From Singulisphaera sp. GP187 (GTDB taxonomy: Bacteria > Planctomycetota > Planctomycetia > Isosphaerales > Isosphaeraceae): a stretch of 40,000 bases of DNA. Position numbers and translations under genes: made by a program. Below are positions 7,268 to 40,000 of the stretch, one piece after another. The DNA is taken from NCBI RefSeq assembly GCF_900129635.1, contig NZ_FSRB01000002.1, positions 2,894,498-2,934,497 of the forward strand, written 5' to 3'. The stretch's first letter is position 1, and every line of letters starts with the position of its first letter. Below the pieces are notes generated by a model. The model saw nothing but the letters and a program-made list of their open reading frames with translations, did not search any database and was not told the origin of the DNA.

Positions 7268-7279
7268 GGGTATGCCTCT

Positions 7280-11023: not shown

Positions 11024-11101
11024 GATTGCCTCCGGAAATGAGAACGGGGCGACGGGTTGGTCGTCCCCGTGCCCCTTGAGATGGAAGGGTCCGACTTCCG
11101 A

Positions 11102-17971: not shown

Positions 17972-18606
17972 GCTACGCAGTCAAGTCCATCTTCTACACG
18001 CTCCAAGGTGAGGGGGCGAACACCGGCCGACCGGCTGTCTTCTGCCGGTTTGCGGGGTGCAACCTCTGGTCAGGACGTGAGGAAGACCGGCTCACCGCGA
18101 AGTGCTCGTTCTGCGACACCGATTTCGTGGGGACGGACGGACCTGGGGGTGGGCGGTTCCACTCGGCCGGGGAGCTGGCACAGGCGGTCCTGGGTTACTG
18201 GCCTAGCCCGCCGGCCGTTGGGCGGCCATTCGTCGTCTGCACGGGCGGTGAACCGCTCTTGCAACTAGACGAAGCCCTCGTCGTGGCCCTGCACGACCAC
18301 GGTTTCGAGATCGCCGTCGAGACCAACGGCACCGTCCGACCGCCCCGCGGACTGGACTGGATCACGGTCAGCCCGAAAGCCGGGTCGGACTTGGTCATTC
18401 AGGCCGGTCAAGAGTTGAAGCTGGTTTTCCCTCAGGCAGGGCTACGGCCGGAGCCCTTCGAGGGGCTGGATTTCCGCCACTTCTTCCTCCAGCCCATGGA
18501 TGGGACGGAGGCCGAGGTTAACACCCGGCTCGCCGTGCGGTACTGCCTTGAGCACCCGTGTTGGAGGTTGAGCCTCCAGACCCACAAGATGCTGGGGATC
18601 CCCTGA
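17968..18606 (+). CDS. queE: 7-carboxy-7-deazaguanine synthase (radical SAM)
   Basis: '[27 protein letters not shown]...(14 aa between Cys)...CSFCDT' is the C-x14-C-x2-C cluster variant. The ATG at 17968 overlaps the queC stop (ATGA). Confidence 0.93.
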
Positions 18607-19448: not shown

Positions 19449-19616
19449 CCGGAATACCCGGGTCTATCGACGGGCAGCGGGAATTGTTCGAAGGAATTCG
19501 TCCATCACGCGGCTTCGCATGGGTAGCAACTCGGAGTTTTTCCAGCATTAATGATGCGAGAACTAGATGCTCCTTGCGACTTCCCGGCCCGATATCGCCT
19601 GGATTGAGCTATCGAG

Positions 19617-19862
19617 ATGACTACGATCAGAGAATCCATGGAGGCCATCGGTTTCGGGATGCCTGCGGTTGTTGCACTCTCCCCTGACCTGAGGCGTGCT
19701 TATCAGCACTTCGCCGAATGGAAGCTGGATACTCATTGCGGGTCCGAGTGCCAGAAGCTGTTAGACCTGGCAACCCCTCTGCTGGAAGCCGCTGACCCGG
19801 CGGCCCGTCCTGAACTTTGGCGAGGAATCGTTTCCGCCATGGCGATCATTTGCGTAGGCTAG
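19617..19862 (+). CDS. Small hypothetical protein (81 aa)
   Basis: ORF with GC3-biased codons ending 15 nt before the TGT-fusion gene. No recognisable motif and no QueD-type His motifs. Confidence 0.4.
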   Translation: MTTIRESMEAIGFGMPAVVALSPDLRRAYQHFAEWKLDTHCGSECQKLLDLATPLLEAADPAARPELWRGIVSAMAIICVG

Positions 19863-19877
19863 GTTTCGAGGAACTGC

Positions 19878-25027: not shown

Positions 25028-26860
25028 ATGGCTGGCGAAGCTCAAGGCAAGTTCTACGAGGCACTTACGTACGTTCTGATTGCTGATTCGAAGATTCTCG
25101 GCGGGTCTCAATTGTATTGGGACAAGCCAGTTGCCGGACTGTCAAAGCGGCCTGATTTGGTCATCGGGGCCTCTCTGGATCATATCGATGCAGTTATCAT
25201 GGTGACGCATAGCGGCTCAGCCAAAGAGTCAGAGAAGAAATATTGGAGGAATGCATGTGAATATGTTGAATCAAAGTTGTTTCTTGGAGGCAATCCATTT
25301 GTTCTTAACCTGGTTTACAATGCGGCAATGAAGCCCAACATTAAGGTGGTTTCGAAGTACTCGTTCGACGCGTCTATTATCGTCGAGGACGAAGCATTTG
25401 GCCCAACGCTTCTGACTTGGGCGGGGACTGCAATGGATAGCATTCCTCATGATGGCGACACCATTCAGTACGTTAGGGATCGCTTGCAATGCGATCTTGG
25501 TGCAAATCCCAAGCTGGCTACTGCGGTATCCGATCTTCGGCAGATGCTTATCGATGCGTTGCGAAACGCGAAGTCACTGAAGGCTCCGCTGATTAGTACA
25601 AGAACGCGAAAGGCCTTATCCGCAGATAAGGAGGCCCGCAAGACCGCATTGCGACGAGGCATCGCGAAAGCGATTTTGGTCGGAGATATCGACGCGATTT
25701 GGCAGCCTGCCAATACACAGAGCACATTTGCTGCACCGGATTACTGCAAAACGTTAAATTTTCACAAACCCTCGATCCTTGGAGACGTCGTTTGCGATCA
25801 GGACCTCATGTGGCTTCGGGAGAATCTGAGCCGAGAGTCCGTAAAGGAGATTATAAGCAATTGCCCAATCAAACAGATGCAGGTCTGGGTCGAACCTCTC
25901 AAAAACTTGGCGATCCTCGACCAATCGCAAGCATATGCTGCACAGCACTGGGATGAGTTGACAACTCCCGAGGGTCTCTATCATCATTTGGTAAAAACAA
26001 GTTCACGTGAATACATCAAATCTCATTTCGAGAACCGTTTCATTCCCCCAGGGTGGCTCTTCGACTATCTGCGAGAATTGTACAAGTCACATAAGAAGAG
26101 AAAGACGGCTTGGGGGTGGGCCGCCTTGGTGAAGGATTTGAAATTGGTCGATAAAGACTCCGCCTACCGCAGCTTTGTCTCTGAAGTTACTGGCATTCCA
26201 ATTGAGGAGCTGAGCAATGATTGGAGTGGATTTCGCACCGTCACTTACGCATTGCCAGAGTGGATCATGGGGGATTCCAGGGCCAATTTTAAACTGAGGC
26301 CGACAGATCTGCCTCGGCTAGCTTACACATTCGCACCCAGGCTGGCCTCGGTACCCAAAGCGGCCCTGGAGGAACTTAAGCAGAGGATTCTGGGCTTCTA
26401 CATCGCAAACTACCTGGAGGCAAAGCTGATTCAATACAGGAACTTCGATCCATTACGCATTCTGATCGAGCTCGAGTTGTCTAAAGCCGGCCTGCCGTAC
26501 GAGTTCGTTGAGCGGTTCCCTTCAGCATTTGTTGAGAAGGCCACGGCAGCAGGTGAACGGTTTAACGTTCGAACCGGAGCAACTTCTGTATTGCGTTGCA
26601 ACGACATGCTGATTTGTTGGAGGAGCGTGACCGGTCTCGGCAGAGACCACAAACAGAAAGAGTTGATCGCGAGAGCATTCGCTATCGGGCACACGTGGGG
26701 TGACGGTGGGTTCCGAGCGAGATCGAAGGTCAAGCGGTTGATTCTTGTCTTGGATGGTGATGTCGATGAACCAGACATTAAGGCTCTCTCTCGAGGGGGA
26801 TGGGATGAAATCTTCTACCCCAACGAGCTGGACTCCCTCCCAATATCGATCAACATGTGA
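25028..26860 (+). CDS. Orphan 610-aa protein in a low-GC segment, function unknown
   Basis: Long uninterrupted ORF with ATG start. The first 60 nt are 50% GC by hand count, against 63% for the first 60 nt of the herA-like gene, and A/T-ending codons are frequent. N-terminus 'KRPDLVIG...DAVIMVTHSGSAKESEKK' is only weakly nuclease-like. Confidence 0.75.
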   Translation: MAGEAQGKFYEALTYVLIADSKILGGSQLYWDKPVAGLSKRPDLVIGASLDHIDAVIMVTHSGSAKESEKKYWRNACEYVESKLFLGGNPFVLNLVYNAAMKPNIKVVSKYSFDASIIVEDEAFGPTLLTWAGTAMDSIPHDGDTIQYVRDRLQCDLGANPKLATAVSDLRQMLIDALRNAKSLKAPLISTRTRKALSADKEARKTALRRGIAKAILVGDIDAIWQPANTQSTFAAPDYCKTLNFHKPSILGDVVCDQDLMWLRENLSRESVKEIISNCPIKQMQVWVEPLKNLAILDQSQAYAAQHWDELTTPEGLYHHLVKTSSREYIKSHFENRFIPPGWLFDYLRELYKSHKKRKTAWGWAALVKDLKLVDKDSAYRSFVSEVTGIPIEELSNDWSGFRTVTYALPEWIMGDSRANFKLRPTDLPRLAYTFAPRLASVPKAALEELKQRILGFYIANYLEAKLIQYRNFDPLRILIELELSKAGLPYEFVERFPSAFVEKATAAGERFNVRTGATSVLRCNDMLICWRSVTGLGRDHKQKELIARAFAIGHTWGDGGFRARSKVKRLILVLDGDVDEPDIKALSRGGWDEIFYPNELDSLPISINM

Positions 26861-26993: not shown

Positions 26994-29318
26994 ATGATCT
27001 CGTCGGCGTTGTTTCTGCAAGCCCTCAAGAACGGTACGGGTCGTACCCCGAACGCCGGCCAGAAGCAGGCCGTCGAGGCCCCCGGCGGAGCCGCCCTCTT
27101 CGTAGTCGCCGGGCCCGGAACCGGCAAGACCGCCACACTGACAATGCGGATGCTCAAGTTGATCTTCGTGGACGGGGTCGCCCCGCGAGGGATCCTTGCG
27201 ACCACGTTCACCCGGAAGGCCGCCCAGGAGATCCGATCGAGATTGCTGACCTGGGGGTATGCGGTCCAGGAGGAACTCGTCTCGAACGGCAAACTCAGCA
27301 AGATGGACCGGCTTTGGCTCGAGCGGGTCGACATCAACCAGGTGCGGACGGGCACGATCGACGGCGTCTGCGAGGAGCTTCTTCGCGATTTCCGCGATCC
27401 CGGCACCGACCCGCCGATCCTCGCTGACAAATTCGTCTCGGACACACTGCTCCTACGCCAAGGCCTCTTCCAGTCGGACCGCTACAAGGACGACGACCTC
27501 GACACCTTCCTCTGCAATGTCCGAGGGACGGGCCGCTTCGGCTGGAACATCGGGGCCAAGAACAGCCTCGTCCGCACGATCTGGGACCGACGCCACCACG
27601 ATCAGATGGACTGGGTGAAGTTCGCGGGTTCCGGAACCAGCCAGGAAGAGAAGCAAGCGATCACGCTGCTGGACTCCGCCCTGACCGATTACGCCAAGGA
27701 ACTCGGCGATCGACTCATGGTCGACTTCGCCCAGCTGGAGCAGACCGTGCTCGCTCGCCTGGCGGCGGGCGGCCTCACGGAGTTCGCCGAGGAGTTGAAG
27801 GTCGTCCTCGTGGACGAATACCAGGACACCAACCTGCTCCAGGAGCGACTGTATTTCCAACTGGCCCAGCGTTGCGGCGGTGCCCTGACCGTGGTGGGGG
27901 ATGACGATCAGAGCCTCTACCGGTTCCGCGGTGCGACGGTGGACCTCTTCAGCAACTTCGAGAAGCGGTTCACCTCGACGCTCGGTACGAAGCCGACGAA
28001 AATCTTCCTCAACGAGAATTACCGTTCCTCATCGGTCATCATCGATTTTGTGAACGATTACGCGAGCCTCGATGCCGGCTACCAGGGCGTTCGAGTGGCC
28101 GGGAAGCCCCGACTCGTGAACCCGAAACCGCGTGACGCCGAGATGCCCGTGCTCGGGATGTTCCGGAATTCTATTGAGGACCTCGCGGGCGATCTCGCAC
28201 GTTTCATCCACGCTGTTACTCGCGGAGACGGCTTCGAGGTGAGAGGGCAATGGATCAGGGTTGATCGGGAGGCCTCGGGCGACGTCGGGGACTGTGCCCT
28301 CCTCTGCAGTTCCCCCCAGGAATACGGCAGCGGGACCCCCCTCAAGGAGAGGCTGCCGCTCCTCCTGAGGCGGGAGCTGGGGCAGCTGAACCCGCCCATC
28401 CCCGTGTTCAACCCGCGGGGGCAAGACCTCGCCGTGATTCCTTCAGTCGAGCGGCTCGGGGGGTTGTTGCTCGAGTGCCTCGATCCGGGAGGCCCAATCC
28501 AGTCTGTGATGCGAGGCCTCTCGAACGAGATCCAGGCGACTTTCAACACGTGGCGAGCCAGGACGCTCGCCTGGCTTGACGGGGACAGTAAGCTAGAGCC
28601 GCTCCGTGATTACGCGGTGAACTGGGCCAGCCGAGACGCGGATCGCCCTGGATATGCTTGGCCCAAGAGCACGCCCTGCATCGAGCTGCTCTACGCCCTC
28701 ATCCACTGGATGCCCGAGCTTCACGACGACCCCGAAGGGCAGGTCTACTTGGAGGTCTTCACGAGGCAGCTCGGGGCGGCGGAACAGGTCAGCGGATTCA
28801 AGGCTCGAGTCGTCACCGATCCCGATAAGCCGGATCTAACGCGGACTTCCGTCGGTCATCTACTCCTGTACTTCCTCGCCCCGATCGCCTCCGGTGCGGC
28901 CGGGGTCGACGAGGAGTTGATCGAGAGCTTCCCTCGTGACCGGCTGAACATGCTGTCGATCCACCAGAGCAAGGGACTCGAGTTCCCGTTAGTCATCGTG
29001 GACGTCGGTTCCGACTTCAAGGGTAGATACCCCGCCCAGGCTTTCAAGCGGTTCCCCCGGAATCCCGGCCCGCCGCACAATCTCGAGGACTTGCTGCGGC
29101 CTCACAGCCCCCTGGCGACCCTGAGGCGGAGCGGTCTCGATCGTGCCTTCGACGACCTCTATCGCCAGTATTTTGTGGCATTCAGCCGACCACAGGACGT
29201 GTTGCTCCTGGTCGGCCTGAACGCCACGCGACCCGGTGGTAACGTCGAGAATGTTGCCACCGGACGGGATAGGACCGGCGTGAATCGCTGGTCGCCCCCG
29301 CCGTTTCTGGAGATCTGA
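26994..29318 (+). CDS. UvrD/Rep/PcrA-family SF1 helicase
   Basis: 'AGPGTGKT', 'ATTFTRKAA', 'VDEYQDTN', 'VGDDDQSLYRFRGA', 'NYRSS', 'SIHQSKGLEFPLV'. Confidence 0.95.
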   Translation: MISSALFLQALKNGTGRTPNAGQKQAVEAPGGAALFVVAGPGTGKTATLTMRMLKLIFVDGVAPRGILATTFTRKAAQEIRSRLLTWGYAVQEELVSNGKLSKMDRLWLERVDINQVRTGTIDGVCEELLRDFRDPGTDPPILADKFVSDTLLLRQGLFQSDRYKDDDLDTFLCNVRGTGRFGWNIGAKNSLVRTIWDRRHHDQMDWVKFAGSGTSQEEKQAITLLDSALTDYAKELGDRLMVDFAQLEQTVLARLAAGGLTEFAEELKVVLVDEYQDTNLLQERLYFQLAQRCGGALTVVGDDDQSLYRFRGATVDLFSNFEKRFTSTLGTKPTKIFLNENYRSSSVIIDFVNDYASLDAGYQGVRVAGKPRLVNPKPRDAEMPVLGMFRNSIEDLAGDLARFIHAVTRGDGFEVRGQWIRVDREASGDVGDCALLCSSPQEYGSGTPLKERLPLLLRRELGQLNPPIPVFNPRGQDLAVIPSVERLGGLLLECLDPGGPIQSVMRGLSNEIQATFNTWRARTLAWLDGDSKLEPLRDYAVNWASRDADRPGYAWPKSTPCIELLYALIHWMPELHDDPEGQVYLEVFTRQLGAAEQVSGFKARVVTDPDKPDLTRTSVGHLLLYFLAPIASGAAGVDEELIESFPRDRLNMLSIHQSKGLEFPLVIVDVGSDFKGRYPAQAFKRFPRNPGPPHNLEDLLRPHSPLATLRRSGLDRAFDDLYRQYFVAFSRPQDVLLLVGLNATRPGGNVENVATGRDRTGVNRWSPPPFLEI

Positions 29319-29321
29319 TCG

Positions 29322-30149
29322 ATGCCGCTCTCCGTCCGCCCGCCGATCAACACGCTCCCCTCGTACAGCCTGACCGGCGACCTACTCGGCTTCCTCCGAT
29401 GCGGCCTCCAGTACCGCTACTCCCGGGTGGGCAATCTCCCCCCCTCACACCCCGTGCAGCTCTGGTTCGGCCAGTTCATCCACGCCGTGCTCGAAGAGTC
29501 ATATCGCCAGGTCAAGGAGGCCAAGTGCGAGATGCCGCCCTGGCCGCAAGACAAGCTCGACGGGATCATGGACCGGATCGACCGGCGGTTGGCTGCACGG
29601 AACATCCGCTGCTGGGATGACGCGTCGGAACACCTGGGGCGGCGGCGGGCTACGGCCGCCGTGAACGAGCTGGGTCCGCTCCTCTTCCCGCTGATCAACC
29701 AGGCGGAGGTCCGCGTCCGGGGGGCGAGGAAGCTGCCGGCCGGGCTGGAGGGAGTTGTCGCCAGGGACATCGAGCGTTACGAGATGCTCGGCGTCATCGA
29801 CGTCGTGACCCAGGTCGAACTCTTCAACCCCAAGTTCCGGGGCAACAAGCTCCTGGAGCTGGTCGTCGAGGAGCTCCCCAGCACGCCGCCTCAGGAATTC
29901 GAGGTGATCGTCGACTATAAGGGTATGAAGCGGCCCGATCAGTCGGAGGCAGGGGCCGGACTCTGGGAGATCTACGAGTGGCAGATCCACACCTATGCCC
30001 ACTTGCGGTCGCTGCTCACGACGAAGCCGATCATCGCCGGAGTGCTGGTGTATCTGAATGAATTGGTGCCAACGAAGACCGACTTCTTCGCCCTACGAAG
30101 AGCTCTTAAGCGTACTGTCACACAAACCCTGTTGGAATCCGTCACCTAA
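29322..30149 (+). pseudogene. Cas4/RecB-like PD-(D/E)XK nuclease, 5' portion, interrupted by IS630-family insertion after nt 30108
   Basis: 'FLRCGLQYRY', 'GQFIHAVLEE', 'GVIDVVTQVE', 'EVIVDYKGMK', 'WQIHTYAHL' (QxxxY). Native sequence ends at 30108; the last 13 codons plus the stop are IS-derived. Confidence 0.85.
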
Positions 30150-31305
30150 TTCTTGTGGGTATGGCTTCGGGGCCCTTCGAGATAGGAGATTCGAATGAAC
30201 CGGTCAGAACGACGGTTTCGTGCTTGCAAATGGCTGCTGATCCGCCTTTTGGTCGCCTGTTGATCTGGGTCGTTGGTCGTGTCCAGGACATTCTGTTGGA
30301 TGTCGCTGAAGATCGTTTCACACGGATTGTCGTCCGGGCTTCGCTTTGGCAGGCTGGTCCATTGCAGCCCCAATCGTCGCATCATCGCACGGGTCGCTCG
30401 GGCCTTGATCGGGTGGGCCGGATCCCGATCCAGGGCCAACCGCAGGAGGCGTCCGGGATACCATCGCCGGATTCGCCGCAGGAATTGGCAGACGTACTTC
30501 GCCCCCTTGCCCGGGTAGAAGGCCCAATGGACACGGCCGTGGTTCACGTCATAGAGCAAAAACAGGTAGAACCGACCGCGGATCTTTTGGTTGCGCTGCA
30601 AGACCAGGCGCTTGGCCGTGGTGTAACATCGTCCGCCGTACGCCTTGACGGTGATCGGCTGGACGTCGAAGAACGCCAAGACGGCCCGACGGGGTCGGTG
30701 TTGCCACCACACTCTCAACCGATGCAAAATCACACGCCGATTCGGGTCGGTGCTGAAGAGTTTGCGGCGGATGCGGCGAAATGTATACCCCCCTTTTTGA
30801 GCACCCGACGAAGGTGCTCACGGCTGATCGACTTGACGATTTTCTCTCGGATCAGGACGTCACGCAACTTGGCCAGGGTCCAGCGGCCGAACGGCAACCC
30901 GAGGGTCGTGGGCGATTGGCCGGCCAGGCGCCAAACGGCCGCGATTTGCTCTTGGGACAGGTGTGGAGGAGCGCCGACGGTGCGCGGTCGGCTCAGAGAG
31001 GACAGGCCGTGCTGCGCGAAGTCGCGGAGATCGGCATATACGGTGTTGACATGGACATGGAGCAACCGGGCGATCGCGGTGGCGGAAAGATCGGCGGAGC
31101 GAAGCAAGAGCACCTCCGCGCGACGACGCTGCCAAGGTCGTAGAGGCTTCTCAAGCCATTGATGGACCCGGCGGAGTTCGGCCGGGGTCGGTTTCCGTGC
31201 TGTCAGAGGACGTGACATGGTGGAACCTCCGCTCTGGGTGGACCACCAACCATTCTAACAAAACAGGCGACAAGAATTCCGACAGGGATTCTGTGACGCT
31301 ACGCT
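30109..31305 (-). mobile_element. IS630/Tc1-mariner-family insertion sequence (1197 bp) with TA target duplication
   Basis: TA at 30107-30108 and 31306-31307. Terminal IRs AGCGTACTGTCACACAAACCCTGTTGGAAT versus reverse complement AGCGTAGCGTCACAGAATCCCTGTCGGAAT (25/30 identical). Contains an HTH + DDE_3-type transposase. Confidence 0.88.
30146..31218 (-). CDS. IS630-family transposase in two overlapping frames (HTH part 30730..31218; DDE part 30146..about 30790), joined by a -1 shift
   Basis: N-terminus 'ELRRVHQWLE...LSATAIARLLHVHVNTVYADL'. Catalytic part '...LAFFDVQPITV...LALDRDPAHP...SPDDNPCETIFSDIQ'. The second frame stays open upstream through 'FRRIRRKLFSTDPNRRV' to the CAAAAAGGGGGG run. 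Confidence 0.85.
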
Positions 31306-31307
31306 TA

Positions 31308-31678
31308 AGGCCCGGAACGAGAATGTCATCCTCCCCGACCCGGGCAGCGAGGACGAGAAGATCCTCCGGGAATGGGCCGGGAAAGGAAGGGACGAACAAC
31401 CCCCTCTGCTGTCACTCGGGTTTCGTCTCAAGCGAGCCATCCGGGTGATCCCCATCTCCGAGGAATCCGAGGCGGAGTCGCTCAGGGCGTTCGACGACAC
31501 GGTCGCAAGGATCGAGAAATGCGTCGCGGAAGAGGCCAGGACGGGCCGTGTCATCGCCTCGTGGGAGAAAAATCCCCATAACGAGCCAACCTGCGTGGCG
31601 TGTGACTCGAAGACTTACTGCCCAGATCACAAGAAGGATACTTCCCCTCGACTTCCTGGTGTCAAGGTAACGCCTTGA
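31308..31678 (+). pseudogene. 3' portion of the interrupted Cas4/RecB-like nuclease gene
   Basis: In frame with 29322..30108 once 30109..31307 is removed. Carries the terminal Cys cluster 'PTCVACDSKTYCP'. Confidence 0.8.
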
Positions 31679-31738: not shown

Positions 31739-32659
31739 TCAGCCATCCAGGGACTTTTCGATTGACTGAGTGGTGTACATCAGCCTGTGAGTTGAGAAGG
31801 GTAGTGCCGTCTGGCACGCCGCGGCCAGGTTGCAGAGTGCCAGATGGAGACGATCCGCCGGCGAAGGATCGGCGATTGCGATGTCCGGGCGTCCCCAGAG
31901 CCTGCCATCGACGGCGAGCTTGACGTAGGAGCTCGAATCGACCGAGTCGACCCCGTGCCGGAAGAGCTCGGCGACGATATCCGGCTTGCCCAAGCCGAAC
32001 ACGTGCAAGGGCCGGTCACCGATCTCGCCGCGGACCGCATCGACGATCTCCAGGACCGCCTTCAAGTCTCGGGCCCGTGGGACCAGGCCTCCGATTGCCA
32101 CTCCGTCGAATGGGCTCCCGGCGTACTCCCTGGCACAGGTCCGGGCCTTCTTCGCGTCCCAGGCCTGCACGCAGGCGTACAACCTCAGATCTGACCGCCG
32201 TCGGTTCGCGAGGGCCCAATGGGCGTTCGCGATCGTCAGGGATTGGCGGACTTTCGCGTCGGCCGGCTTCGTCCCCGGCGGGATCGGGAAGTCGAGCGTG
32301 AAGGCGACGTCCGCGATCTGCTCCTGCAACTCCAGGGCATCCAGCGGGGTCAAGAGTTGGCTCGTCCCATCGACCATTCGTTCAATGCACCCGAGCCCAT
32401 TCCTCTTCCGAACCTGGGAATCCTTGAACAGGGCGGAGAAGCCGCCCGAATCGACGAGGAGTGGCAAGTTCGGCCGATCGTTCAGGTCCCGGTTCTTGGC
32501 GTAGTGATAGCTGACCATCATCGCCGGGGCCAGGCGAGGGAGATACGGCCTGACGAGATCGTCCAGGGGGTACTCCTCCCCGAACGTGGTGACGGGGACG
32601 TAGGCGGGGAAGCGGATGATGCCGCTTCGGGTCTTCAAATTTCGTGCGGTCGGTTCCAC
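31739..32659 (-). CDS. Stand-alone TGT-family transglycosylase (DpdA-like)
   Basis: 'IIRFPAYVPVTTFG', canonical 'LLVDSGGFSALF', 'GVAIGGLVPR', 'LHVFGLGKP', 'GVDSVDSSSY'. No CxCxxC Zn motif. The GTG start at 32659 overlaps the 3' end of the upstream helicase by 25 nt. Confidence 0.85.
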   Translation of the reverse strand: MEPTARNLKTRSGIIRFPAYVPVTTFGEEYPLDDLVRPYLPRLAPAMMVSYHYAKNRDLNDRPNLPLLVDSGGFSALFKDSQVRKRNGLGCIERMVDGTSQLLTPLDALELQEQIADVAFTLDFPIPPGTKPADAKVRQSLTIANAHWALANRRRSDLRLYACVQAWDAKKARTCAREYAGSPFDGVAIGGLVPRARDLKAVLEIVDAVRGEIGDRPLHVFGLGKPDIVAELFRHGVDSVDSSSYVKLAVDGRLWGRPDIAIADPSPADRLHLALCNLAAACQTALPFSTHRLMYTTQSIEKSLDG

Positions 32660-35151
32660 GGTTCTTGCGATCTCCCGCCCGGGGACGGGGCTTCGAACCA
32701 GAGGTCCCGCAGGTTGATCGGGCCTGACGACCGGTCGTTCTCGGTCGTGTTCACTGCCGCGTAGAGTGATCGATCACCCCGGGCGAGGCGGACGGCCAGG
32801 ACATGCTTGCACGTCTGGCCTTTCCTAGCGTCCGGGCAATCGCAAACCCAGTCCGATCCCTGCTGCCTCACCACGTGCGGTTCGAGCCCTCCCCAGACGT
32901 GATACGTACCCTCGCCGGCGGGTCGGAGCTTGAGGTCCAGGGAACGGCGGAGTCGATAGGGATCGATCCCGTGACTCTTCCATTCCGGGGCTTCCGGAAA
33001 TGTCGGTGCCGACGCACGGGATTCACGGTACCAGTAGGCGGATCGCGTCCGGACGAGATCGACGGCGGCTTCCGTCCATTTCCGGGCACGACGCAAGGAC
33101 ATCCCCGGCATCGCGGCCAGGGTTTCCGGTTCCGCCTGGGCGAGAGATTCCAGATCGGTGATCTCCGCCAACTTGAGCCGGCGGGCCCAGGCGGGTCCCA
33201 GGCCCGGGATCAGGGTCAGCGTGATGACCTCCTCGTCGAGACCGGCCTGCACCATCCGTTGAAGAGCGTGAATCTTCTCCGCCAAGCTCACCTCCTGTTC
33301 GATCGACGGGGAGTTCTGGTCGTCCTCCGTCTTCTCAATCCGCTGGATGTCGGCCATCGCGGTGAGTAGGCGTTCGAGAGACTCCTTCAGACGGAGTATC
33401 TCGAACGGGTAACAACCGGAGAGTTCCGCCACCTGTTCCGCGTCCCCGGTGCGTGTCCAGGCTCGGCCCACGCTCGCCATCTTCAAAGCCGCCAGGAGCC
33501 GTTTCCCCCTAACCCCGAGGCGTTGTTCCAGATCGGATCGGGCCTTGCCCAAGAATTGCGAGTTCTCACGAGCGAGGGCGTCCGCCAAGTCGTCGAGCTC
33601 CTCGAAATCGACCGGCAGCACCGGCTCGCAGTCGGAACTCGATGCGGCGATGAGCAAGAGGTCCAGGAAGGATGCCGCGGGTTCGTCCTCCAGGGCGGCC
33701 TGGAAGAGCTGGACGGTCGCCGGTTCCAGGAGGTGGCGTGCCGCGATCCGTCCCAGTCGCGTGGGAAGGAGCCGGATCTCCCCGGAACCCGGCTCGCGAT
33801 CCGTGTCGTCGCGAACCAGATCCGCCTCTTGCATCTGCCAGAGGAGTTTGTTGAGGTCGGGCAATCGGTCCTGGTGGGCCGCGAGCGATTGCCCGAAGGT
33901 GCGGCTCAATTGTCCGGCGGTCCGGGAGAGCCCGCTACTGAGCTCCGCCAAGATCTGCTCCGCGAGGTACCGTGGTTGGCACAGGCCCGAACGGACCGGC
34001 TCGAAGATTCCCCGAGAGTAGCCGTCCGCCGCCCGGTCCCACGTGGGCGTCAAGAGGACCGCCTCGCCAGACGGGTCAAGGCCGGGCCTGCCCGCACGGC
34101 CGACCCTCTGCCAGACCTGGTTGGTGGGGAGCGGCCGGAACTCGCCGCCATCGAAGAACTGCACGTCGTAGAGCACGACCTGTCGGACCGGCAGATTCAA
34201 CCCCATCTCGAGGGTGGATGTCGCCACGAGCACGTCTAACGTCCCACGTCGGAATCCGTCCTCGATCTCCTTCCGAGAGGCATGGTTCAGGCCGGCGTGA
34301 TGGTGTCGGGCTCGAAGACCCTTTTCTGCCAAGAACCGACTCAACCCTTCGGCCCGCCGCCGGCTCTGGACGAAGACCAGGCTCTTGCCACCCTGTTCCA
34401 CGCACCGGCATACCTCGGCCCAGAGTAGCTCCGGCTTCTCGTCGGCCTTGCGGAAGCGGACGATCCGCCAGTCGATCGGGATTGGCCGCCAGTCGGAGGT
34501 AAACTCCACGCCCTGGAGCCACGATGCCAGCTCCACCCGGTTACCCAGGGTCGCGGAAAGTCCCAAGACCTGGACGAACGGGTTGAGACGCTGGAATCGC
34601 GAGATGGCCCCCTCCAGGCGGGCACCACGTTGCCGATCGCCCAGGAGGTGAATCTCGTCCACGACCAGCAGGTCCACCTCCGGAATCCAGCCCCAGTGGG
34701 ACCGCCAGGATCGCGTGCAGGCATCCAGTCGCTCCGGGGTCATGACCAGCAACCGAGCGTCGTAGTAGCTGACTGGGTAGGGCCGTTTGGAAGTCCCGTA
34801 CTCACCCGTGAAGACGCCCACCGGTGAAGGGTCGAATCGATCCCGCCAGCGATCCATCAATTCGGTGGCCAGGGCCCGCAAAGGCGTGAGGTAAATCGCC
34901 CTCCTGCCCCGCCCCAGCACCTGGGCGATGGATTGTTCGGCCAGCCAGGTCTTCCCGCTTCCGGTCGGCATCTGGAGGACGCAGCTGAACCCCGAATCGA
35001 TCAGCCCGCGTTCCAAGATGGCGGCTTGGGGTGGAGTCAGTGACAAGAATAATCCTCCAGGCCTTGAGGTAGCCGAATGAGTTCCGAAGGCGTCTTGATG
35101 CGGGGCCGAACGTTGGGGGCCGATGAAAGCATAACCGCCGAAATCGGTCAA
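32635..35151 (-). CDS. Ski2/Hel308-like DEAD/DEAH-box SF2 helicase with HhH region and C-terminal SWIM zinc finger
   Basis: 'QMPTGSGKTW', 'LTPLRALA', 'VVDEIHLLG', 'GLSATLGN', 'QRVGRAGRPG'. SWIM finger 'WVCDCPDARKGQTCKHVLAV'. There is no in-frame ATG before motif I. The likely start is TTG at 35046 (GGAGGA 6 nt upstream), not the TTG at 35151. Confidence 0.9.
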   Translation of the reverse strand: MTDFGGYAFIGPQRSAPHQDAFGTHSATSRPGGLFLSLTPPQAAILERGLIDSGFSCVLQMPTGSGKTWLAEQSIAQVLGRGRRAIYLTPLRALATELMDRWRDRFDPSPVGVFTGEYGTSKRPYPVSYYDARLLVMTPERLDACTRSWRSHWGWIPEVDLLVVDEIHLLGDRQRGARLEGAISRFQRLNPFVQVLGLSATLGNRVELASWLQGVEFTSDWRPIPIDWRIVRFRKADEKPELLWAEVCRCVEQGGKSLVFVQSRRRAEGLSRFLAEKGLRARHHHAGLNHASRKEIEDGFRRGTLDVLVATSTLEMGLNLPVRQVVLYDVQFFDGGEFRPLPTNQVWQRVGRAGRPGLDPSGEAVLLTPTWDRAADGYSRGIFEPVRSGLCQPRYLAEQILAELSSGLSRTAGQLSRTFGQSLAAHQDRLPDLNKLLWQMQEADLVRDDTDREPGSGEIRLLPTRLGRIAARHLLEPATVQLFQAALEDEPAASFLDLLLIAASSSDCEPVLPVDFEELDDLADALARENSQFLGKARSDLEQRLGVRGKRLLAALKMASVGRAWTRTGDAEQVAELSGCYPFEILRLKESLERLLTAMADIQRIEKTEDDQNSPSIEQEVSLAEKIHALQRMVQAGLDEEVITLTLIPGLGPAWARRLKLAEITDLESLAQAEPETLAAMPGMSLRRARKWTEAAVDLVRTRSAYWYRESRASAPTFPEAPEWKSHGIDPYRLRRSLDLKLRPAGEGTYHVWGGLEPHVVRQQGSDWVCDCPDARKGQTCKHVLAVRLARGDRSLYAAVNTTENDRSSGPINLRDLWFEAPSPGGRSQEPWNRPHEI

Positions 35152-35164
35152 TCAGAGTAGGCGT

Positions 35165-35194
35165 TTGGTATTCCGAACGCCGACAGATTATAAT
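35165..35194 (+). promoter_or_regulatory. Sigma70-like promoter candidate: TTGGTA (35165-35170), 18-nt spacer, TATAAT (35189-35194)
   Basis: Read directly. The spacer and -35 region include the inverted repeat GGCGTT-N10-AACGCC. It lies 22 nt upstream of the GTG/GGAGG start of the HTH gene, in the divergent intergenic region. Confidence 0.4.
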
Positions 35195-35215
35195 GATCGA
35201 TGTGCGGAGGTATCC

Positions 35216-35785
35216 GTGGACGCGAACGATCGGGCTGCCGAGAATCTCCGGTACTTGCTCTTTACTCGCGGGGAGCCTCGCGCGCTCTGGGCGGATCGAG
35301 TGACGGAGTGGGCTGGCTGCGACCGTCGCCGTGCCATGCGACTCCTCCGTTCTGGCCGGTTCACACCGAGCGAGCAAGACCGGATCACCAGGGTTTGCGA
35401 AGTCTCGACCGAGGAGTTGCGGTTCGGACGACTCGTCCCCGACCGGCCGGATTTGATTCTCCAAGAGAACCTTCGCTATTTGCTGGACATCCTGGAACAC
35501 GGCGAGCAGAAGCGTCTGGCGGGACTGCTTGAGATGGAGACGGGTACGGTCTCTCGGTGGCGGGGGGGCAAGCAACTCCCCGAGCGGAAGACACAGGCAG
35601 CATTGGCCCGCTACTTCGGTCTCCCCCCAGGGACGGACCTCCAGGCCGACCCGGTCTTCCTGTCCTACCCGCCGGCCGACGAACGTCAGAGACGACATTG
35701 GCTCCGGGAGCGGATCGAGTCCATCTCGCCGGACCTACTTGGGGAACTCTTCCCCGCCCTGGAACGACTCCTCGAGGACGAATGA
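35216..35785 (+). CDS. Tandem-HTH (two XRE-like units) putative regulator
   Basis: Internal duplication 'ENLRYLLFTRGEPRALWADRVTEWAG...' and 'ENLRYLLDILEHGEQKRLAGLLEMETGTVSRWRGG'. GTG at 35216 with GGAGG 5 nt upstream; the ORF-track start at 35165 is TTG inside the putative -35 box. Confidence 0.7.
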   Translation: MDANDRAAENLRYLLFTRGEPRALWADRVTEWAGCDRRRAMRLLRSGRFTPSEQDRITRVCEVSTEELRFGRLVPDRPDLILQENLRYLLDILEHGEQKRLAGLLEMETGTVSRWRGGKQLPERKTQAALARYFGLPPGTDLQADPVFLSYPPADERQRRHWLRERIESISPDLLGELFPALERLLEDE

Positions 35786-38148
35786 GAAGGCTTGACTGCG
35801 GCACAACAGGGACCACTGGACGGCAAACCCCTCCAGACTGGTCGGCATTCGGGCTGCTCCCTCCCTGGGATCAGGTCGTAGAACTCCTTGCCCCAGCGAC
35901 CCGCCCCCGATCAATCCAGGTCAAGGCTCTCGGCGAATTACGGGTGTTGGACGGGCGACGGAACTTGATCGTGGCGGCCCCAACCAACGGAGGGAAGAGC
36001 CTCGTCGGCCTGCTGATGCTCCTGGAGGCAGTGCGGCGAGGCCGACGTGCCATCCTGCTCGAGCCCCTGCGGGCAATCGCCCGGGAGAAGTATGACGAAT
36101 TATCACCGCTCGTCCCCGGGCTCGGGCGTTTGCTGGGCCGTCCGGTCGAGGTCCGCCTGACCACCGGCGACTATCGCCTGGACGACGAGTTCTTCTCGCA
36201 GGCCCCTCCAAGGTCGGGTGAGCTGATCATCGCGACTCCCGAGCGGCTGGACGCGATCCTCCGTAACGCGGCCCACGAGGATTGGGTCGCCACGATCGGG
36301 GCAGTCTGCCTGGACGAGGCTCACCTGATCGGTTCGACGCACCGTGGGCCGGTCCAGGAATTCCTTCTCACCTCGCTCCTCTGCCGCCCCGAACCCCCGC
36401 GGCTGATCTTGCTGTCGGCCACAATCGGGCAGCCGGACCGGATTCAAGCCTGGCTCGCTCCCTGCGACGTGGTGCACGAGGGCGATCGGAACCCGCCCCT
36501 GCACAAGGAAGTGCTGGCCCTGGATCCGGGCGAGGATCCCTCCCAAGCATCGGTCGATTGGGCCCGGAGAGTACTGGACGATCCCGGTGCCTCCGCCCTC
36601 ATCTTCGTCTACCAGACGAGGTCGGCCGAGAAGTTGGCCCGACAGATCCACGAATCGATCGACGGGGCGGCGGGGCCGGTGGGTCCGCTGGCTTACCACG
36701 CCCAACTCAGCATGCAACGCCGCCGTGAGGTCCGAGAGGCTTACGCCTTGGGTGATTGCCGCTGCGTGGTGACGACCACGGCGTTGGCCTTGGGGGTCAA
36801 CCTGCCGGCAACCCACGTCCTGGTCCGCGACAGTACGTTTCCGGGTGTCGGTCCCCTACCGACGGCGGAGTTGCTCCAGATCCTGGGTAGGGCCGGTCGG
36901 CAGGATCGGGCCGGTCGGGGGTCGGTCCTGCTCCGCCCCGAAGACGCCTGGCAGCCGTCCGAACTGTCCTCCGCCCTGAGAGACGAGACGGTCCTTCCGC
37001 TGACGTCTTCCTTTGATAGATCCATGGCTCGGTTCTCGCGAACTCGGCCTCCCAATATCGCTGAACTCGAGCCGCTTGCCACCGCCATCGCAGGCCTCCT
37101 GGCCCGGTCGCCCGAGGAAGGATGTCGCCTCGAAGACCTGGAAGTCTTCATGCGACGGAGCCTCGGAGGAAGTGGTCTCGTGGGGCTACTCGGCCCAGGG
37201 CTCTCGTGGCTGTGCGATCCGTCCCGTCGGCTCGCCTTTCGGGATGAGCTGGGCCGATATCGCCTGACGGTGCTCGGCCGGAATGCGACCAAAGCCGTCC
37301 TGCCACTGCCGGTCGCGGCTGGCGTGGGGCAGTTGTTTCGGGACCTGCTGAGCCTCGATCCCGAAGACGACATCCTAGCCGGCTGGGGCCCCTTGGACCA
37401 TCTCATCGCCCTGGACCTGCTGTCGGGCCGGTCCCCCCGGCTCCGGAGTTTCAGTCAGCGATTGGGTGAGCAACTGGAGGGCTGGATGGAGGCCCACCCG
37501 GATTCCCCCTCAGTGCTATATCGCCGCTGGATTGTTGGCCAGTCCGGCTTCTCGCGGGCCGAAGAGGTTTTCGGTTCCCTCGGACTGGTCCCCGAGGCAA
37601 ACGGTAAGGTGGACGGGGTCGAGGCGGCACGCCGCATGGCCTATCTGTCCGTTTTCCGGTCGGTGGTGCTCTTAGAAAGGGGCCGGGGACAGGTCATAGC
37701 CGATCTGGAGCGACGGTGGTCCGTGACGGGTCTCGAGGGGGTCGAGGAACGCTGGCGGGACGACGTAATCTGGCTCGCGACGTCATTGGCCCGCACCCTA
37801 GAACTGAGGTGTTTCTATCATCATCTAGTCGAGTCTTGCGGGGCTAACGAAGGGCGAATCCGGAGGGTGCGAGGCATCCTGAGGCAATTACGTCAGCAAC
37901 TCTACGAATTGCAGGACCATCTGAAATATTGCTCACCGTTGGGTCCGGTGCTCCGTGGGCTCCGCCGGGTCATCAATCCCGGCCAGGGGAACCTTGCGGG
38001 GGTGCAGACGATCCGGCGGCTGGAGGAGTCCGGGATCCGGACCCTGGCCGATCTGGCGAAGTCGACGGAGGAGGATCTGGTCCGCCTGGGGATCCAGCGG
38101 CGATTCGCGGCCCAGATCCTGACGTACGTGCGACGTCGGCTCCAATAA
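35782..38148 (+). CDS. Ski2-like DEAD/DEAH-box SF2 helicase with C-terminal HhH
   Basis: 'APTNGGKS', 'LEPLRAIA', 'CLDEAHLIG', 'LLSATIG', 'QILGRAGRQD'. C-terminal HhH: 'IRRLEESGIRTLADLAKSTEEDLVRLGI'. The ATG at 35782 overlaps the HTH gene stop (ATGA). Confidence 0.9.
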   Translation: MRRLDCGTTGTTGRQTPPDWSAFGLLPPWDQVVELLAPATRPRSIQVKALGELRVLDGRRNLIVAAPTNGGKSLVGLLMLLEAVRRGRRAILLEPLRAIAREKYDELSPLVPGLGRLLGRPVEVRLTTGDYRLDDEFFSQAPPRSGELIIATPERLDAILRNAAHEDWVATIGAVCLDEAHLIGSTHRGPVQEFLLTSLLCRPEPPRLILLSATIGQPDRIQAWLAPCDVVHEGDRNPPLHKEVLALDPGEDPSQASVDWARRVLDDPGASALIFVYQTRSAEKLARQIHESIDGAAGPVGPLAYHAQLSMQRRREVREAYALGDCRCVVTTTALALGVNLPATHVLVRDSTFPGVGPLPTAELLQILGRAGRQDRAGRGSVLLRPEDAWQPSELSSALRDETVLPLTSSFDRSMARFSRTRPPNIAELEPLATAIAGLLARSPEEGCRLEDLEVFMRRSLGGSGLVGLLGPGLSWLCDPSRRLAFRDELGRYRLTVLGRNATKAVLPLPVAAGVGQLFRDLLSLDPEDDILAGWGPLDHLIALDLLSGRSPRLRSFSQRLGEQLEGWMEAHPDSPSVLYRRWIVGQSGFSRAEEVFGSLGLVPEANGKVDGVEAARRMAYLSVFRSVVLLERGRGQVIADLERRWSVTGLEGVEERWRDDVIWLATSLARTLELRCFYHHLVESCGANEGRIRRVRGILRQLRQQLYELQDHLKYCSPLGPVLRGLRRVINPGQGNLAGVQTIRRLEESGIRTLADLAKSTEEDLVRLGIQRRFAAQILTYVRRRLQ

Positions 38149-38231: not shown

Positions 38232-39332
38232 TCAGTCATCCAGCCAGGTCCGGAGTCGGGCGTGGCGGAGTCGACCCGATTTGGCCGCTTCGTCCTGGCC
38301 TGTGATCAGAGCACGACGACCCAGGTAGCCCGGGTTCAGGTGTGGGGTGTCCGGCCGATAGGTTTGGGTCATAGCCCGTCTCTCCGTGTCGCTCCATGAG
38401 GAGACCCAGGCGACGGTCCGAACAGACCCATCCGATTGACGGGTGCCGAATTCTAGGGCTCCGACCAACTTCTCGTGACCGTGGCCCGGGGTACCCGGCT
38501 TGGATCCGGTGACGAAGGCTTCGACCGTGGTCTCCCGTTTGCGTTTGAGCCAGTGACCGACCCGACGGCCCGGCTCGTAGGGTTCGTCCAGTTGTTTCCA
38601 GACCGTCCCCTCCCCGCCGGCATCGAGGATACGGTCGTGGATGCTGGGTCGGCCGATGGTGAAGGTCGGGACGGGCTCCAGGTGGGGATTATCTGCCTCG
38701 GCGAGAGCTTGGGTCAGGATGTCGAGTCGGTCCCGGAGTGGCTCCCGGGTGACGTCGGTGCCCCTGAAATTCAGGATGTCGAACGCGTGGAACCGGAGGC
38801 GGTTTTCGGGTTGAGTCTGCATCTGACGGGCCTGCTCGGGGCTGGTGGACAGGATCGCCGTTGCGGCCTGGAGTGGGTGTTGGGCGATGGTCCGGCCGGT
38901 GTCGAGAGATGAGGCCGGAAAGACCAACTCACCGTCCAGGATGCTGCCGTCGAGCCGGGAGAGCCCGGTCGTGAGGTGAAGCAGGTTGGCTTGAAACTCG
39001 CCCAGGCGGTAGGTGACCTCGCTGACGCAACGGCTGGTGATGCGGACCTGGGGACCCTCTACGTGCAGCAGAGCTCTTACCCCGTCGAGCTTGGGGGAGA
39101 CGACCCAGCCAGGTCCGTGTTCGATCCGACGGGCGTCTTCTGGGATGAGATCGGACCAGTTGCCCAGGAGCATGGGCTGGACCTGAGGCGGGAGCGGCCT
39201 GCCTGGGTGGTTCTTGAGCCAATGGTAATTCCGCAAGGCGGCGATGTAGGGTTCTTTGCTCGGTCGACCGTGAGAGGCCACCTCTATCCTGAGGGTGGCA
39301 CATTCCCGTTGCAGTTCGGATAGCGACTTCAT
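38232..39332 (-). CDS. ATP-dependent DNA ligase (adenylation + OB domains)
   Basis: Motif I 'SPKLDGVR', motif III 'LDGELVF', motif IIIa 'FHAFDIL', motif IV 'EGTVWK', motif V 'HWLKRK'. ATG at 39332. Confidence 0.9.
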   Translation of the reverse strand: MKSLSELQRECATLRIEVASHGRPSKEPYIAALRNYHWLKNHPGRPLPPQVQPMLLGNWSDLIPEDARRIEHGPGWVVSPKLDGVRALLHVEGPQVRITSRCVSEVTYRLGEFQANLLHLTTGLSRLDGSILDGELVFPASSLDTGRTIAQHPLQAATAILSTSPEQARQMQTQPENRLRFHAFDILNFRGTDVTREPLRDRLDILTQALAEADNPHLEPVPTFTIGRPSIHDRILDAGGEGTVWKQLDEPYEPGRRVGHWLKRKRETTVEAFVTGSKPGTPGHGHEKLVGALEFGTRQSDGSVRTVAWVSSWSDTERRAMTQTYRPDTPHLNPGYLGRRALITGQDEAAKSGRLRHARLRTWLDD

Positions 39333-39430
39333 GTGTCCTCCGTTCGGTTCTCGTCCCTCCCGCGTACCCCGCCTGAACGCCGCATACTTTGCTGAGGATG
39401 CTTATCCTTCGGGACTGGGGGAGGCGATCT

Positions 39431-40000
39431 TCAGCGGTGGCAGAGACGGCAGCTGGTGCAGGTCATGTCGGGTCGACGCGGGGCGGCGATCTCGGTCGGG
39501 CAAACGACCGAGTGGAGAAGGCGGGAGGTTGGATGGCCCCGAAGGGGGCGAATCCGGAAGACCAGGTCTCCGGTCGGCTGCTCGTCGCGTTCGGTCTGCA
39601 GGTAGGCGACACGCACCCCTGATGGAATGTCGGTGGGAAGCCCGGTCTCGGCGTCGTACGAATACCACAACCGAACGTTCGGCAGGCGGACCAACTCGTC
39701 TAGAGTCTGGGCAATGCGAGGAATCCGCCAGGATCGGGTGTAGGCGTAGAACGTCGTCCGGGGACAGCGGCGTGCGATGGCGGCCCACGAGTCGACGTAA
39801 TCGGCATCGTAGAAGTCGCCGCTGACGTGGATTCGGAGGGTATGCACGCCCCGTCTATGAACCTCGGCGGCTATGCGGACAACGAAGTCCTCGGACTGGG
39901 CGGCAGACAAGTTCCCGGAGAGGCGGGCCTGCATGGCTCGAGTCCTGAACCGCCCCGAGCGGGCGTAGCAGACGCGAGTACAGAGGTCGGATCGGCCGGG
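39431..40000 (-). CDS. Cys-rich hypothetical protein, 5'-partial at the window edge (possibly phage GP88-like)
   Basis: The frame stays open to nt 40000 ('...SDLCTRVCYARSG...'). Contains 'LRIHVSGDFYDADYV', 'YAYTRSW' and the C-terminal 'CTSCRLCH'. The family assignment is from memory only. Confidence 0.55.
   Translation of the reverse strand, partial: PGRSDLCTRVCYARSGRFRTRAMQARLSGNLSAAQSEDFVVRIAAEVHRRGVHTLRIHVSGDFYDADYVDSWAAIARRCPRTTFYAYTRSWRIPRIAQTLDELVRLPNVRLWYSYDAETGLPTDIPSGVRVAYLQTERDEQPTGDLVFRIRPLRGHPTSRLLHSVVCPTEIAAPRRPDMTCTSCRLCHR

Follow-up and report, generated by a model that had tools for sequence, protein, structure and literature searches.

Background

Of the restriction-modification systems, Dpd has been called the largest and the one least understood. 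In Salmonella Montevideo the transglycosylase DpdA needs the ATPase DpdB for exchanging guanine with preQ0 in DNA, and a helicase-like, base-exposing role of this ATPase has been raised (Gedara et al. 2023, PMC10164549). Here we describe a two-gene cassette found in a 40,000-nucleotide stretch of Singulisphaera sp. GP187 (contig NZ_FSRB01000002.1, positions 2,894,498 to 2,934,497; the whole stretch is called the window below). In this cassette a superfamily 2 (SF2) helicase, helicase 1, is coupled to a minimal enzyme of the tRNA-guanine transglycosylase (TGT) fold, named here TGT2, and both belong to a Dpd-like island which carries a true DpdA as well.

Other related assemblies are known. BRIGADE has YprA-family (DUF1998) helicases as its defining feature and was detected in halophilic archaea only; a transglycosylase is not mentioned in that paper (bioRxiv 10.1101/2025.09.15.676423). 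The Cap10 protein of the type IV cyclic oligonucleotide-based antiphage signaling system (CBASS) has the TGT fold and an intact nucleophile, and it can hold 7-amido-7-deazaguanine in protein-linked form (10.1101/2025.04.06.647259). In a recent survey of dpd islands, dpdAB was a required element. Since current models require DpdB and DpdD-K, the island type presented here is invisible to Dpd searches, and the helicase-TGT2 module is not recognised as such by PADLOC or NCBIfam. A literature search found no description of a Hel308-SWIM-TGT cassette or of an alternation between DpdB and a second TGT, although an older drawing of the gene neighbourhood may exist.

Results

TGT2 is coupled to a SWIM helicase across phyla

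The cassette is made of two overlapping genes:

31739 to 32659, minus strand: TGT2, a 306-aa minimal TGT-fold enzyme (Pfam TGT, NCBIfam, AlphaFold2, Foldseek)
32635 to 35046, minus strand: helicase 1, a Hel308/Ski2-like SF2 helicase with C-terminal helix-hairpin-helix (HhH) and SWIM domains (Pfam, PDB profiles, start codon)

Their pairing was followed in 33 non-redundant loci of about 10 phyla, including Spirosoma, Noviherbaspirillum, Akkermansia, Geobacter, Chloroflexia, Myxococcota, Acidobacteriota and cyanobacteria. Enough sequence to judge the neighbour was available at 29 loci, and in 27 of them the gene immediately upstream of TGT2 is that of the SWIM helicase. The two genes overlap by 4 nt at no fewer than 10 loci, and most of the rest show a short gap. 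On Deinococcus megaplasmids the gene order is reversed, again with a 4-nt overlap, and the pairs are located amid DnaN, RepA, UvrD and ribonucleotide reductase genes. Single-chain versions exist as well: one protein (P0139) reads DEAD-Helicase_C-HHH_5-SWIM-TGT and six others, of 943-1025 aa, read TGT-DEAD-Helicase_C-HHH_5(-SWIM); the catalytic residues are kept in all of them. Adjacency, overlapping open reading frames (ORFs) and fusions in both orders support a conserved unit in which TGT2 is functionally tied to the helicase, and with more than 1000 homologues and synteny conserved in 33 loci the observation is not due to chance. The first-pass annotation, made from the letters alone, had staked its reading on conservation of the helicase/TGT overlap and on the 306-aa protein being something other than the housekeeping TGT; both hold.

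TGT2 belongs to the TGT superfamily by profile and by its TIM-barrel fold. It scores 84.5 bits against Pfam TGT (PF01702; cut-off 26.3, residues 61-255) and 77.6 bits against the superfamily model tgt_general (TIGR00449; cut-off 47.6). An AlphaFold2 model from 22 homologues reached a predicted local distance difference test (pLDDT) of 89.3 and a predicted template modelling score of 0.88, and its top Foldseek matches in the PDB are TGT structures of Z. mobilis (E 9e-17, query-normalised TM-score 0.68). The catalytic aspartate pair is D70, in DSGGF (residues 70-74, DNA 32438-32452), and D241, in VDSSS, the counterparts of Z. mobilis D102 and D280; the base pocket is formed by D123, Q165 and G190-G191-L-V-P. 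Among 22 homologues of several phyla the columns D70-S-G-G-F, D123, Q165, G190-G191, H219, G222, G224, S239, D241-S-S and Y245 are invariant. The Zn motif C.C..C was not found in TGT2, whose cysteines occur only at 91, 163, 175, 276 and 282, so the canonical DSGGF without CxCxxC reported earlier is borne out. The Pfam scan detected no extra domain, and at 306 aa the protein is devoid of PUA, C-terminal and tRNA-binding domains.

In the profile-to-PDB alignment the motifs LDFP, VQ, GGLVP, HVFG and DSSSY of TGT2 correspond to LDIP, IQ, GGVVP, HLFG and DSASY of archaeosine TGT (ArcTGT). The latter was the top PDB match of the family profile (65.7 bits; Salmonella DpdA, 46.7 bits), and TGT2 is thus nearer to the archaeosine and bacterial tRNA-TGT cores than to Salmonella DpdA. 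Compared with P. horikoshii ArcTGT (1iq8), TGT2 shares the LD(F/I)P, Q, GG(L/V)VP, H(V/L)FG and DS(S/A)SY elements of this preQ0-inserting enzyme; it differs in lacking the C1-C3/PUA tRNA-binding domains and the Zn site, and in its DNA-enzyme context.

None of the curated equivalog models accepts TGT2. It scores 46.8 bits, over residues 131-249 only, against bDpdA (NF041059, cut-off 200), 55 bits against TgtA (TIGR00432, cut-off 350) and 56.8 bits against Tgt (TIGR00430, cut-off 306.75). DpdA models were its sole matches in PADLOC. Given the failed DpdA model and the closer tRNA-TGT cores, the name "DpdA-like" proposed at first is too loose, whereas the view of a stand-alone paralogue distinct from the housekeeping TGT agrees with the TIGR00430 score. 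The Pfam scan gave no PF23859 match in TGT2, and a tblastn search of 50,697 INPHARED records returned 11 weak matches, none above 27.4% identity; bDpdA and phage DpdA1-DpdA4 were rejected by score and by missing similarity, no formal tree with DpdA1-4 references having been built. No relative of TGT2 was found in 2.9 million IMG/VR viral contigs, and a phage origin was rejected on this ground.

Judged by its residues, TGT2 represents a large, distinct and apparently catalytically intact family. A word-index search gave 1004 homologues, the best 120 of which are about 300 aa long and 60-83% identical, with named members in Cyanobacteria, Chloroflexi and Acidobacteria; an exhaustive search of 50%-identity representatives gave 1676 related proteins (E <= 1e-3). 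Database records label the homologues "tRNA-guanine transglycosylase". The distribution is patchy, island- and plasmid-borne, and TGT2 is the best-conserved protein of the island, with 53-64% identity between loci.

The domains of helicase 1, checked by translation, are the RecA core (about 34081-35037), the HhH region (33064-33222) and the SWIM finger (32791-32904). Pfam scores are 94.9 bits for DEAD, 73.5 bits for Helicase_C, 38.8 bits for HHH_5 (residues 644-696) and 21.1 bits for SWIM (PF04434; cut-off 19.6, residues 750-787, "CDC...CKH"). Across 21 homologues neither the SWIM signature CxC...CKH nor a C-terminal DLWF motif varies. Both the HhH region and the SWIM finger had been proposed earlier and are confirmed; the protein does not end in the finger, as was also stated, since about 50 residues follow, including the DLWF motif.

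The closest solved structures are ASCC3 (257 bits) and Hel308 (2p6r/9b15, about 220 bits), together with Brr2 cassettes. Residues 3-648 align with Hel308 9b15, and helicase 1 has the same RecA1-RecA2, winged-helix, ratchet and HhH architecture; unlike these proteins it adds a SWIM finger and a DLWF tail, and its partner is a transglycosylase. The Hel308 equivalogs do not accept it (NF040935, 216.6 bits against 1200; PRK02362, 329.8 against 887). The best PADLOC match is Hachiman HamB (142.9 bits), another defence-associated Ski2/Hel308-like helicase, but the match is limited to the RecA1 region, no HamA (DUF1837) partner is present, and HamB 8vx9 scores 75.4 bits where Hel308 scores about 220.

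The second TGT and DpdB appear to alternate beside DpdC-DpdA

Two features of the window link TGT2 to 7-deazaguanine chemistry and to Dpd:

17258 to 19448, plus strand: preQ0 genes QueC (252.4 bits), QueE-like radical SAM (Radical_SAM, 25.8 bits) and FolE2 (GCHY-1, 312.2 bits)
19878 to 21941, plus strand: DpdC-like (DUF6884) domain fused to bDpdA, predicted to be the canonical DNA-guanine transglycosylase of the island

The fusion scores 444.7 bits against the DpdA model NF041059 (cut-off 200), and in PADLOC 406.5 bits for DpdA and 45.9 bits for DpdC (residues 1-106). Its DpdA domain matches Salmonella DpdA 7ui4 with 270.9 bits and carries the Zn motif CPCNIC at residue 618. The DpdA and DpdC of a canonical Dpd system are therefore both present. 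DpdB was not found among the 20 window ORFs compared with PADLOC, in the Pfam-annotated islands L005, L040 and L041, or on the whole 38-kb Picosynechococcus plasmid. The restriction genes DpdD-K were not found in the window either: likeness to DpdF, DpdE and DpdJ stayed below threshold and came from the shared helicase core (DpdF score 26.7 bits against 550), and no PLD-type DpdK was detected.

TGT2-seeded islands contain the DpdC-DpdA fusion and preQ0 genes. Conversely, two DpdC-DpdA fusions picked regardless of TGT2 (P0300 and P0291) both have TGT2 and a helicase at the far end of their islands. Two TGTs are therefore the rule for this island type, not the unusual feature suspected initially.

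DpdB was then compared on five plasmids whose DpdC-DpdA fusion is 44-50% identical to the window DpdA domain; together with the Halomicrobium plasmid described below, the plasmid records used were AP018264.1 (L044), NC_019762.1 (L043), NZ_AP017297.1 (L046), NZ_CP014001.1 (L034/L047), NZ_CP043762.1 (L045) and NZ_CP084465.1 (L042). Two of the five (Nostoc NIES-3756 and Picosynechococcus) have the TGT2 module and no DpdB; two others (Scytonema NIES-4073 and Allocoleopsis PCC 7113) have a DGQHR/DndB protein and no TGT2, and the Scytonema plasmid retains UvrD and PD-(D/E)XK. The fifth, Paenibacillus pART37, carries a divergent TGT of 307 aa with a P-loop NTPase after it, plus DpdJ and DpdK, with no annotated DpdB. 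A Halomicrobium plasmid combines a DpdA-DpdC fusion in reverse order with a UvrD-PD-(D/E)XK fusion, also with no annotated DpdB; its TGT2-like protein (hhalign probability 99%) is divergent from a winged helix-turn-helix gene and is followed by a BrxC-like ATPase. A published drawing of the Microcoleus PCC 7113 cluster shows a DpdB-type variant without TGT2 (PMC5699537). In this small sample of about a dozen cases DpdB and a second minimal TGT with an NTPase appear mutually exclusive beside DpdC-DpdA, and this complementary distribution leans to the modification side for helicase-TGT2.

The window thus resembles Salmonella Montevideo Dpd (PMC10164549) in having a TGT-fold enzyme with a separate ATP-hydrolysing partner, a true DpdA (here fused to a DpdC-like domain), and preQ0 genes, helicases and nucleases in one island. 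It differs in several respects: TGT2 fails the DpdA model and has no Zn motif; it is partnered by a SWIM-bearing Hel308-like SF2 helicase instead of the ParB-like DGQHR protein; HerA/NurA-like proteins, UvrD/PD-(D/E)XK and a 610-aa protein occur as motors and nucleases where DpdB and DpdD-K were not found; and window-type islands have two catalytic TGTs.

With BRIGADE and other Dpd-like variants the window shares a deazaguanine gene cluster with alternative helicase and nuclease sets, and on haloarchaeal plasmids of this Dpd-like kind, too, a DpdA-DpdC fusion is accompanied by a TGT2-like second TGT. In contrast to BRIGADE, the window helicases resemble Hel308 and gave no DUF1998 match, and bacteria are the hosts. 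Both BRIGADE and the BRC system (PMC12839542) are assemblies different from the helicase-TGT2 island.

Gene starts and a putative divergent control region

The longest ORF of helicase 1 reaches 35151 and encodes 838 aa. The true start is probably TTG 35046, giving 803 aa, because GGAGG lies 7 nt upstream and homologues align from residue ~36. The TGT2 start is most likely GTG 32659, placed 25 nt inside the helicase ORF (stop 32635-32637) as initially reported, since a TGT2 orthologue of 78% identity has the same ME-P beginning and likewise overlaps the gene of its helicase, by 13 nt. The alternative, TTG 32638, would leave a 4-nt TTGA overlap at 32635-32638.

Upstream, the cassette faces a second operon:

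35047 to 35215, no strand assigned: putative divergent intergenic control region, a 169-bp spacer
35216 to 35785, plus strand: Xre-type helix-turn-helix (HTH) protein, 189 aa (HTH_31, 26.6 bits, cut-off 27)
35782 to 38148, plus strand: helicase 2, Hel308-like, 788 aa, no SWIM (DEAD 77.4 bits, Helicase_C 39.7 bits, weak HHH_5)

For the HTH gene the start is GTG 35216, as initially reported, with GGAGG ahead of it. The gene diverges from the helicase-TGT2 operon and is kept in 19 of the 24 loci with enough upstream sequence. Helicase 2, whose start is most likely ATG 35782, overlapping the HTH stop (ATGA), adjoins the module in nearly all loci. The divergent operon of a regulator and a second helicase had been recognised correctly at first, the "tandem HTH" had not: only a single HTH_31 match, just below the cut-off, was obtained, and the sole internal repeat found by BLAST is the heptapeptide ENLRYLL.

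The only promoter-like site in the region, TTGGTA-18-TATAAT at 35165-35194 (plus strand), is ahead of the HTH gene. An inverted repeat, GTAGGCGTTTGG/CCGAACGCCGAC at 35157-35184, covers its -35 hexamer just upstream of this gene and is a possible operator. In L036, the closest orthologous locus, the spacer is 82% identical.

Layout of the island

The remaining features between the DpdC-DpdA fusion and TGT2 are as follows:

21938 to 23158, plus strand: NurA-like protein, 406 aa (weak Pfam NurA, 17 bits, cut-off 21)
23167 to 24960, plus strand: HerA-type ATPase (DUF87, 57 bits; PADLOC HerA, 75.5 bits)
25028 to 26860, plus strand: variable 610-aa protein, no family match in Pfam, PADLOC or NCBIfam
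26994 to 29318, plus strand: UvrD-family helicase (UvrD-helicase, 157.9 bits), partner of the PD-(D/E)XK nuclease
29322 to 30134, plus strand: PD-(D/E)XK (Cas4/AddB-like) nuclease, N-terminal part (PDDEXK_1), gene cut by an insertion sequence (IS)
30146 to 31218, minus strand: IS630-family transposase in two ORFs (DDE_3, HTH), inside the nuclease gene
31268 to 31678, plus strand: C-terminal part of the same nuclease, with a Cys-rich tail, converging on the TGT2 stop

In the recurrent layout helicase 2 and the HTH gene lie on one strand and diverge from helicase 1 and TGT2; on TGT2 converge the preQ0 genes, DpdC-DpdA, NurA-like protein, HerA, a variable protein of ~600 aa, UvrD and PD-(D/E)XK. 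The window keeps this order exactly from 17258 to 38148 (~20 kb). Cyanobacterial loci are arranged as DpdC-DpdA, HTH (reverse strand), helicase 1, TGT2 and helicase 2, with overlapping ORFs and with helicase 2 on the TGT2 strand, and a complete system is present on the 38-kb plasmid of cultured Picosynechococcus sp. PCC 73109 (NZ_CP014001). Full-length QueC abuts the helicase-TGT2 module in L037. A second DpdA-like gene (PF23859) stands beside TGT2 in Nostoc MS1 and was not found in other stand-alone loci.

The NurA assignment is consistent with a Picosynechococcus homologue, 54% identical, annotated NurA by NCBI. UvrD is syntenic in 14 of the 23 loci with enough downstream sequence. Homologues of the split nuclease, 384-388 aa long, align to residues 1-272 and then, at 31268-31669, from 268/271 to 384/387. 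As the gene is split by the IS630-family element, this arm of the island is probably inactive in the present genome. The ORF at 31255-31554 (99 aa, minus strand) was considered as a conserved small gene following TGT2 and rejected as an antisense artefact of the C-terminal nuclease fragment.

The 610-aa gene has a G+C content of 0.49-0.50 (about 0.62 around it), and its protein is the fastest-evolving component, with 24-37% identity between islands that share 50-68% in their other proteins. Its invariant residues are P42, D43 ... E78 and K83, and from these alone a PD-ExK nuclease or a specificity subunit is possible. The AlphaFold2 model (pLDDT 85.8) gave no significant Foldseek match in the PDB, the best being the LmuA nuclease (E 0.024).

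No QueD (PTPS) gene was found in 17258-19878, and a QueD between FolE2 and DpdC-DpdA was considered and rejected, the two small ORFs located there being without Pfam match. QueD occurs in related islands, namely L040 and the Allocoleopsis and Paenibacillus plasmids. Directly upstream of QueC the window carries a PAD_porph/agmatine-deiminase-like gene (16043-16945, 98.6 bits) not seen in the other islands examined; such an amidine/guanidine hydrolase beside 7-deazaguanine genes could tailor the base, e.g. G+ to ADG. An 830-aa protein with only Helicase_C matched (12296-14788) precedes the deazaguanine genes.

At the other end, helicase 2 is followed by an ATP-dependent DNA ligase (minus strand) and a GP88-family gene (38232-39934); the ligase is also adjacent in L036 (93% identity), not in other islands. 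Upstream of the island, window positions 1-12000 contain an rve integrase (3088-4716), a WYL/WCX/HTH regulator (5473-6558), a full-length Cas4-like PD-(D/E)XK gene (10181-11023) and several family-less ORFs, and could represent a further defence or mobile module. Giant SACS/NOV_C (sacsin-like) proteins of 1148-1594 aa occur at the edge of or inside islands in three unrelated metagenomic loci (L037, 10884-15590; L040, 1855-6639; L041, 4679-8125), none in the window, and a Tag-like Adenine_glyco gene is located just before DpdC-DpdA in L040.

Discussion

We favour, with about an even chance of being right, the view that helicase 1 and TGT2 are an ATP-driven, helicase-assisted exchanger of DNA guanine for 7-deazaguanine, on the modification side of a Dpd-like system devoid of DpdB. 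In such a system the two proteins, a Hel308-like 3'-5' DNA helicase and a translationally coupled minimal TGT, would act as one machine, presumably as a physical complex. The helicase would spend ATP on opening or remodelling duplex DNA and would present the target guanine; TGT2 would excise it through a covalent Asp241-C1' intermediate, and would resolve this intermediate with a preQ0-type 7-deazaguanine supplied by the QueC, QueE and FolE2 genes of the island. A preQ0-type incoming base is suggested because the GGxVP pocket is like that of archaeosine TGT. The cassette would thereby supply the ATP-dependent step which ParB-like DpdB gives to DpdA in Salmonella, beside or together with the DpdC-DpdA fusion, and the HTH protein would regulate the divergent promoters. 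ASCC3, one of the closest structural relatives of helicase 1, is thought to expose the base for ALKBH3, a base-modifying enzyme.

Several observations weigh against this exchanger. Should the DpdA domain within the fusion be catalytically competent, it is not obvious why another catalytic TGT would be needed and not just an ATPase. TGT2 shares an operon of its own with helicases and a regulator, and this operon converges on the nuclease genes, a layout reminiscent of Dpd's restriction half. Although phages commonly carry writer DpdAs, the viral contigs yielded no TGT2 relative. Within 10 kb of the helicase-TGT2 pairs of L003, L016, L033 and Deinococcus, neither a preQ0 gene nor DpdA occurs. 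Finally, the complementarity between DpdB and TGT2 rests on a handful of plasmids and loci.

The main rival is a reader or effector on the restriction side, which we hold to be unlikely although tenable. Two Hel308-like helicases would scan DNA and TGT2 would flip guanine at sites left unmarked by DpdC-DpdA; the excised unmodified G would leave an abasic site or a covalent adduct, licensing or recruiting the UvrD/PD-(D/E)XK, HerA/NurA-like and 610-aa nucleases. Insertion of 7-deazaguanine by TGT enzymes is irreversible. Self DNA would be spared because 7-deazaguanine resists TGT-type excision. An effector would account for the TGT2 operon standing with its helicases under the HTH regulator, apart from the preQ0-DpdC-DpdA operon and running towards the nuclease genes, for a bona fide writer already present in the island, and for the absence of TGT2 from viral contigs. 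It would also fit the neighbouring nuclease being IS-disrupted in the window, as toxic restriction genes are, and the minimal cyanobacterial sets of DpdC-DpdA, HTH and helicase-TGT2-helicase (L010, L012, L046), where nucleases are farther off or were not seen. However, pairs or TGT2 alone occur on plasmids near replication genes with no DpdA within 10 kb (L015, L033, Deinococcus), where the enzyme would attack unmodified G and be self-toxic. Furthermore, TGT2 swaps with DpdB, a modification factor, with UvrD/PD-(D/E)XK retained in both versions, and its conservation is unlike that of diversifying sensors.

In its boldest form, which we consider doubtful, TGT2 and the two helicases would be a "restriction transglycosylase" hitting unmodified guanine at the very sites that its paralogue DpdA marks. 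If true, it would be the first restriction-modification system with writer and killer both paralogues of one base-exchange enzyme, and restriction would begin by base excision or covalent trapping, not by strand cleavage.

We find it improbable that the pair serves DNA repair or maintenance, acting as a glycosylase and helicase on, for example, damaged guanines at stalled forks, and is merely co-located with a Dpd-like island. Hel308-family helicases do work at stalled forks, the Deinococcus pairs reside near replication and nucleotide metabolism genes, and a DNA ligase follows helicase 2 in the window and in L036. Yet the linkage to DpdC-DpdA and preQ0 genes extends across about 10 phyla and archaea, conservation is complete for the covalent nucleophile and the base-exchange pocket, and genes scattered over islands and plasmids in this patchy way are typically defence or mobile genes, not housekeeping repair genes.

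A role like that of Cap10 in type IV CBASS, with one of the helicases or another partner protein carrying a conjugated 7-deazaguanine for TGT2 to bind or transfer, is very improbable. The precedent (10.1101/2025.04.06.647259) is a defence-associated TGT fold of ~330 aa with the nucleophile Asp and base-reading residues kept, and a QueC gene is in or beside the islands. Cap10 differs in its partners, CD-NTase and Cap9, and in its protein-linked base; neither CD-NTase nor a Cap9-type small QueC homologue was found in the window or related loci, where the QueC genes are full-length and stand beside QueE and FolE2. The helicase N-termini are not conserved and have no M(G/S)G(G/S)GG motif, and the PADLOC matches of TGT2 are to DpdA only.

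A housekeeping tRNA-guanine transglycosylase of the queuosine pathway has next to no probability and is ruled out here, since despite the Pfam TGT and tgt_general matches and the names of database records, TGT2 fails the Tgt and TgtA equivalogs, has no Zn site and no PUA/C-terminal domains (~70 C-terminal residues of the bacterial TGT are missing), and is patchy, island- or plasmid-borne, surrounded by DNA enzymes and fused to DNA helicases.

Conclusions

The TGT2 family has more than 1000 members in about 10 phyla, and a module that appears to alternate with DpdB beside DpdC-DpdA fusions amounts to a natural gene swap. The genus Picosynechococcus, in which strain PCC 73109 carries a complete system on a plasmid, is genetically tractable. 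The questions of how DpdA gains access to a base within duplex DNA and what makes it depend on an ATPase (PMC10164549) could be approached directly with a TGT that is naturally fused to a helicase.

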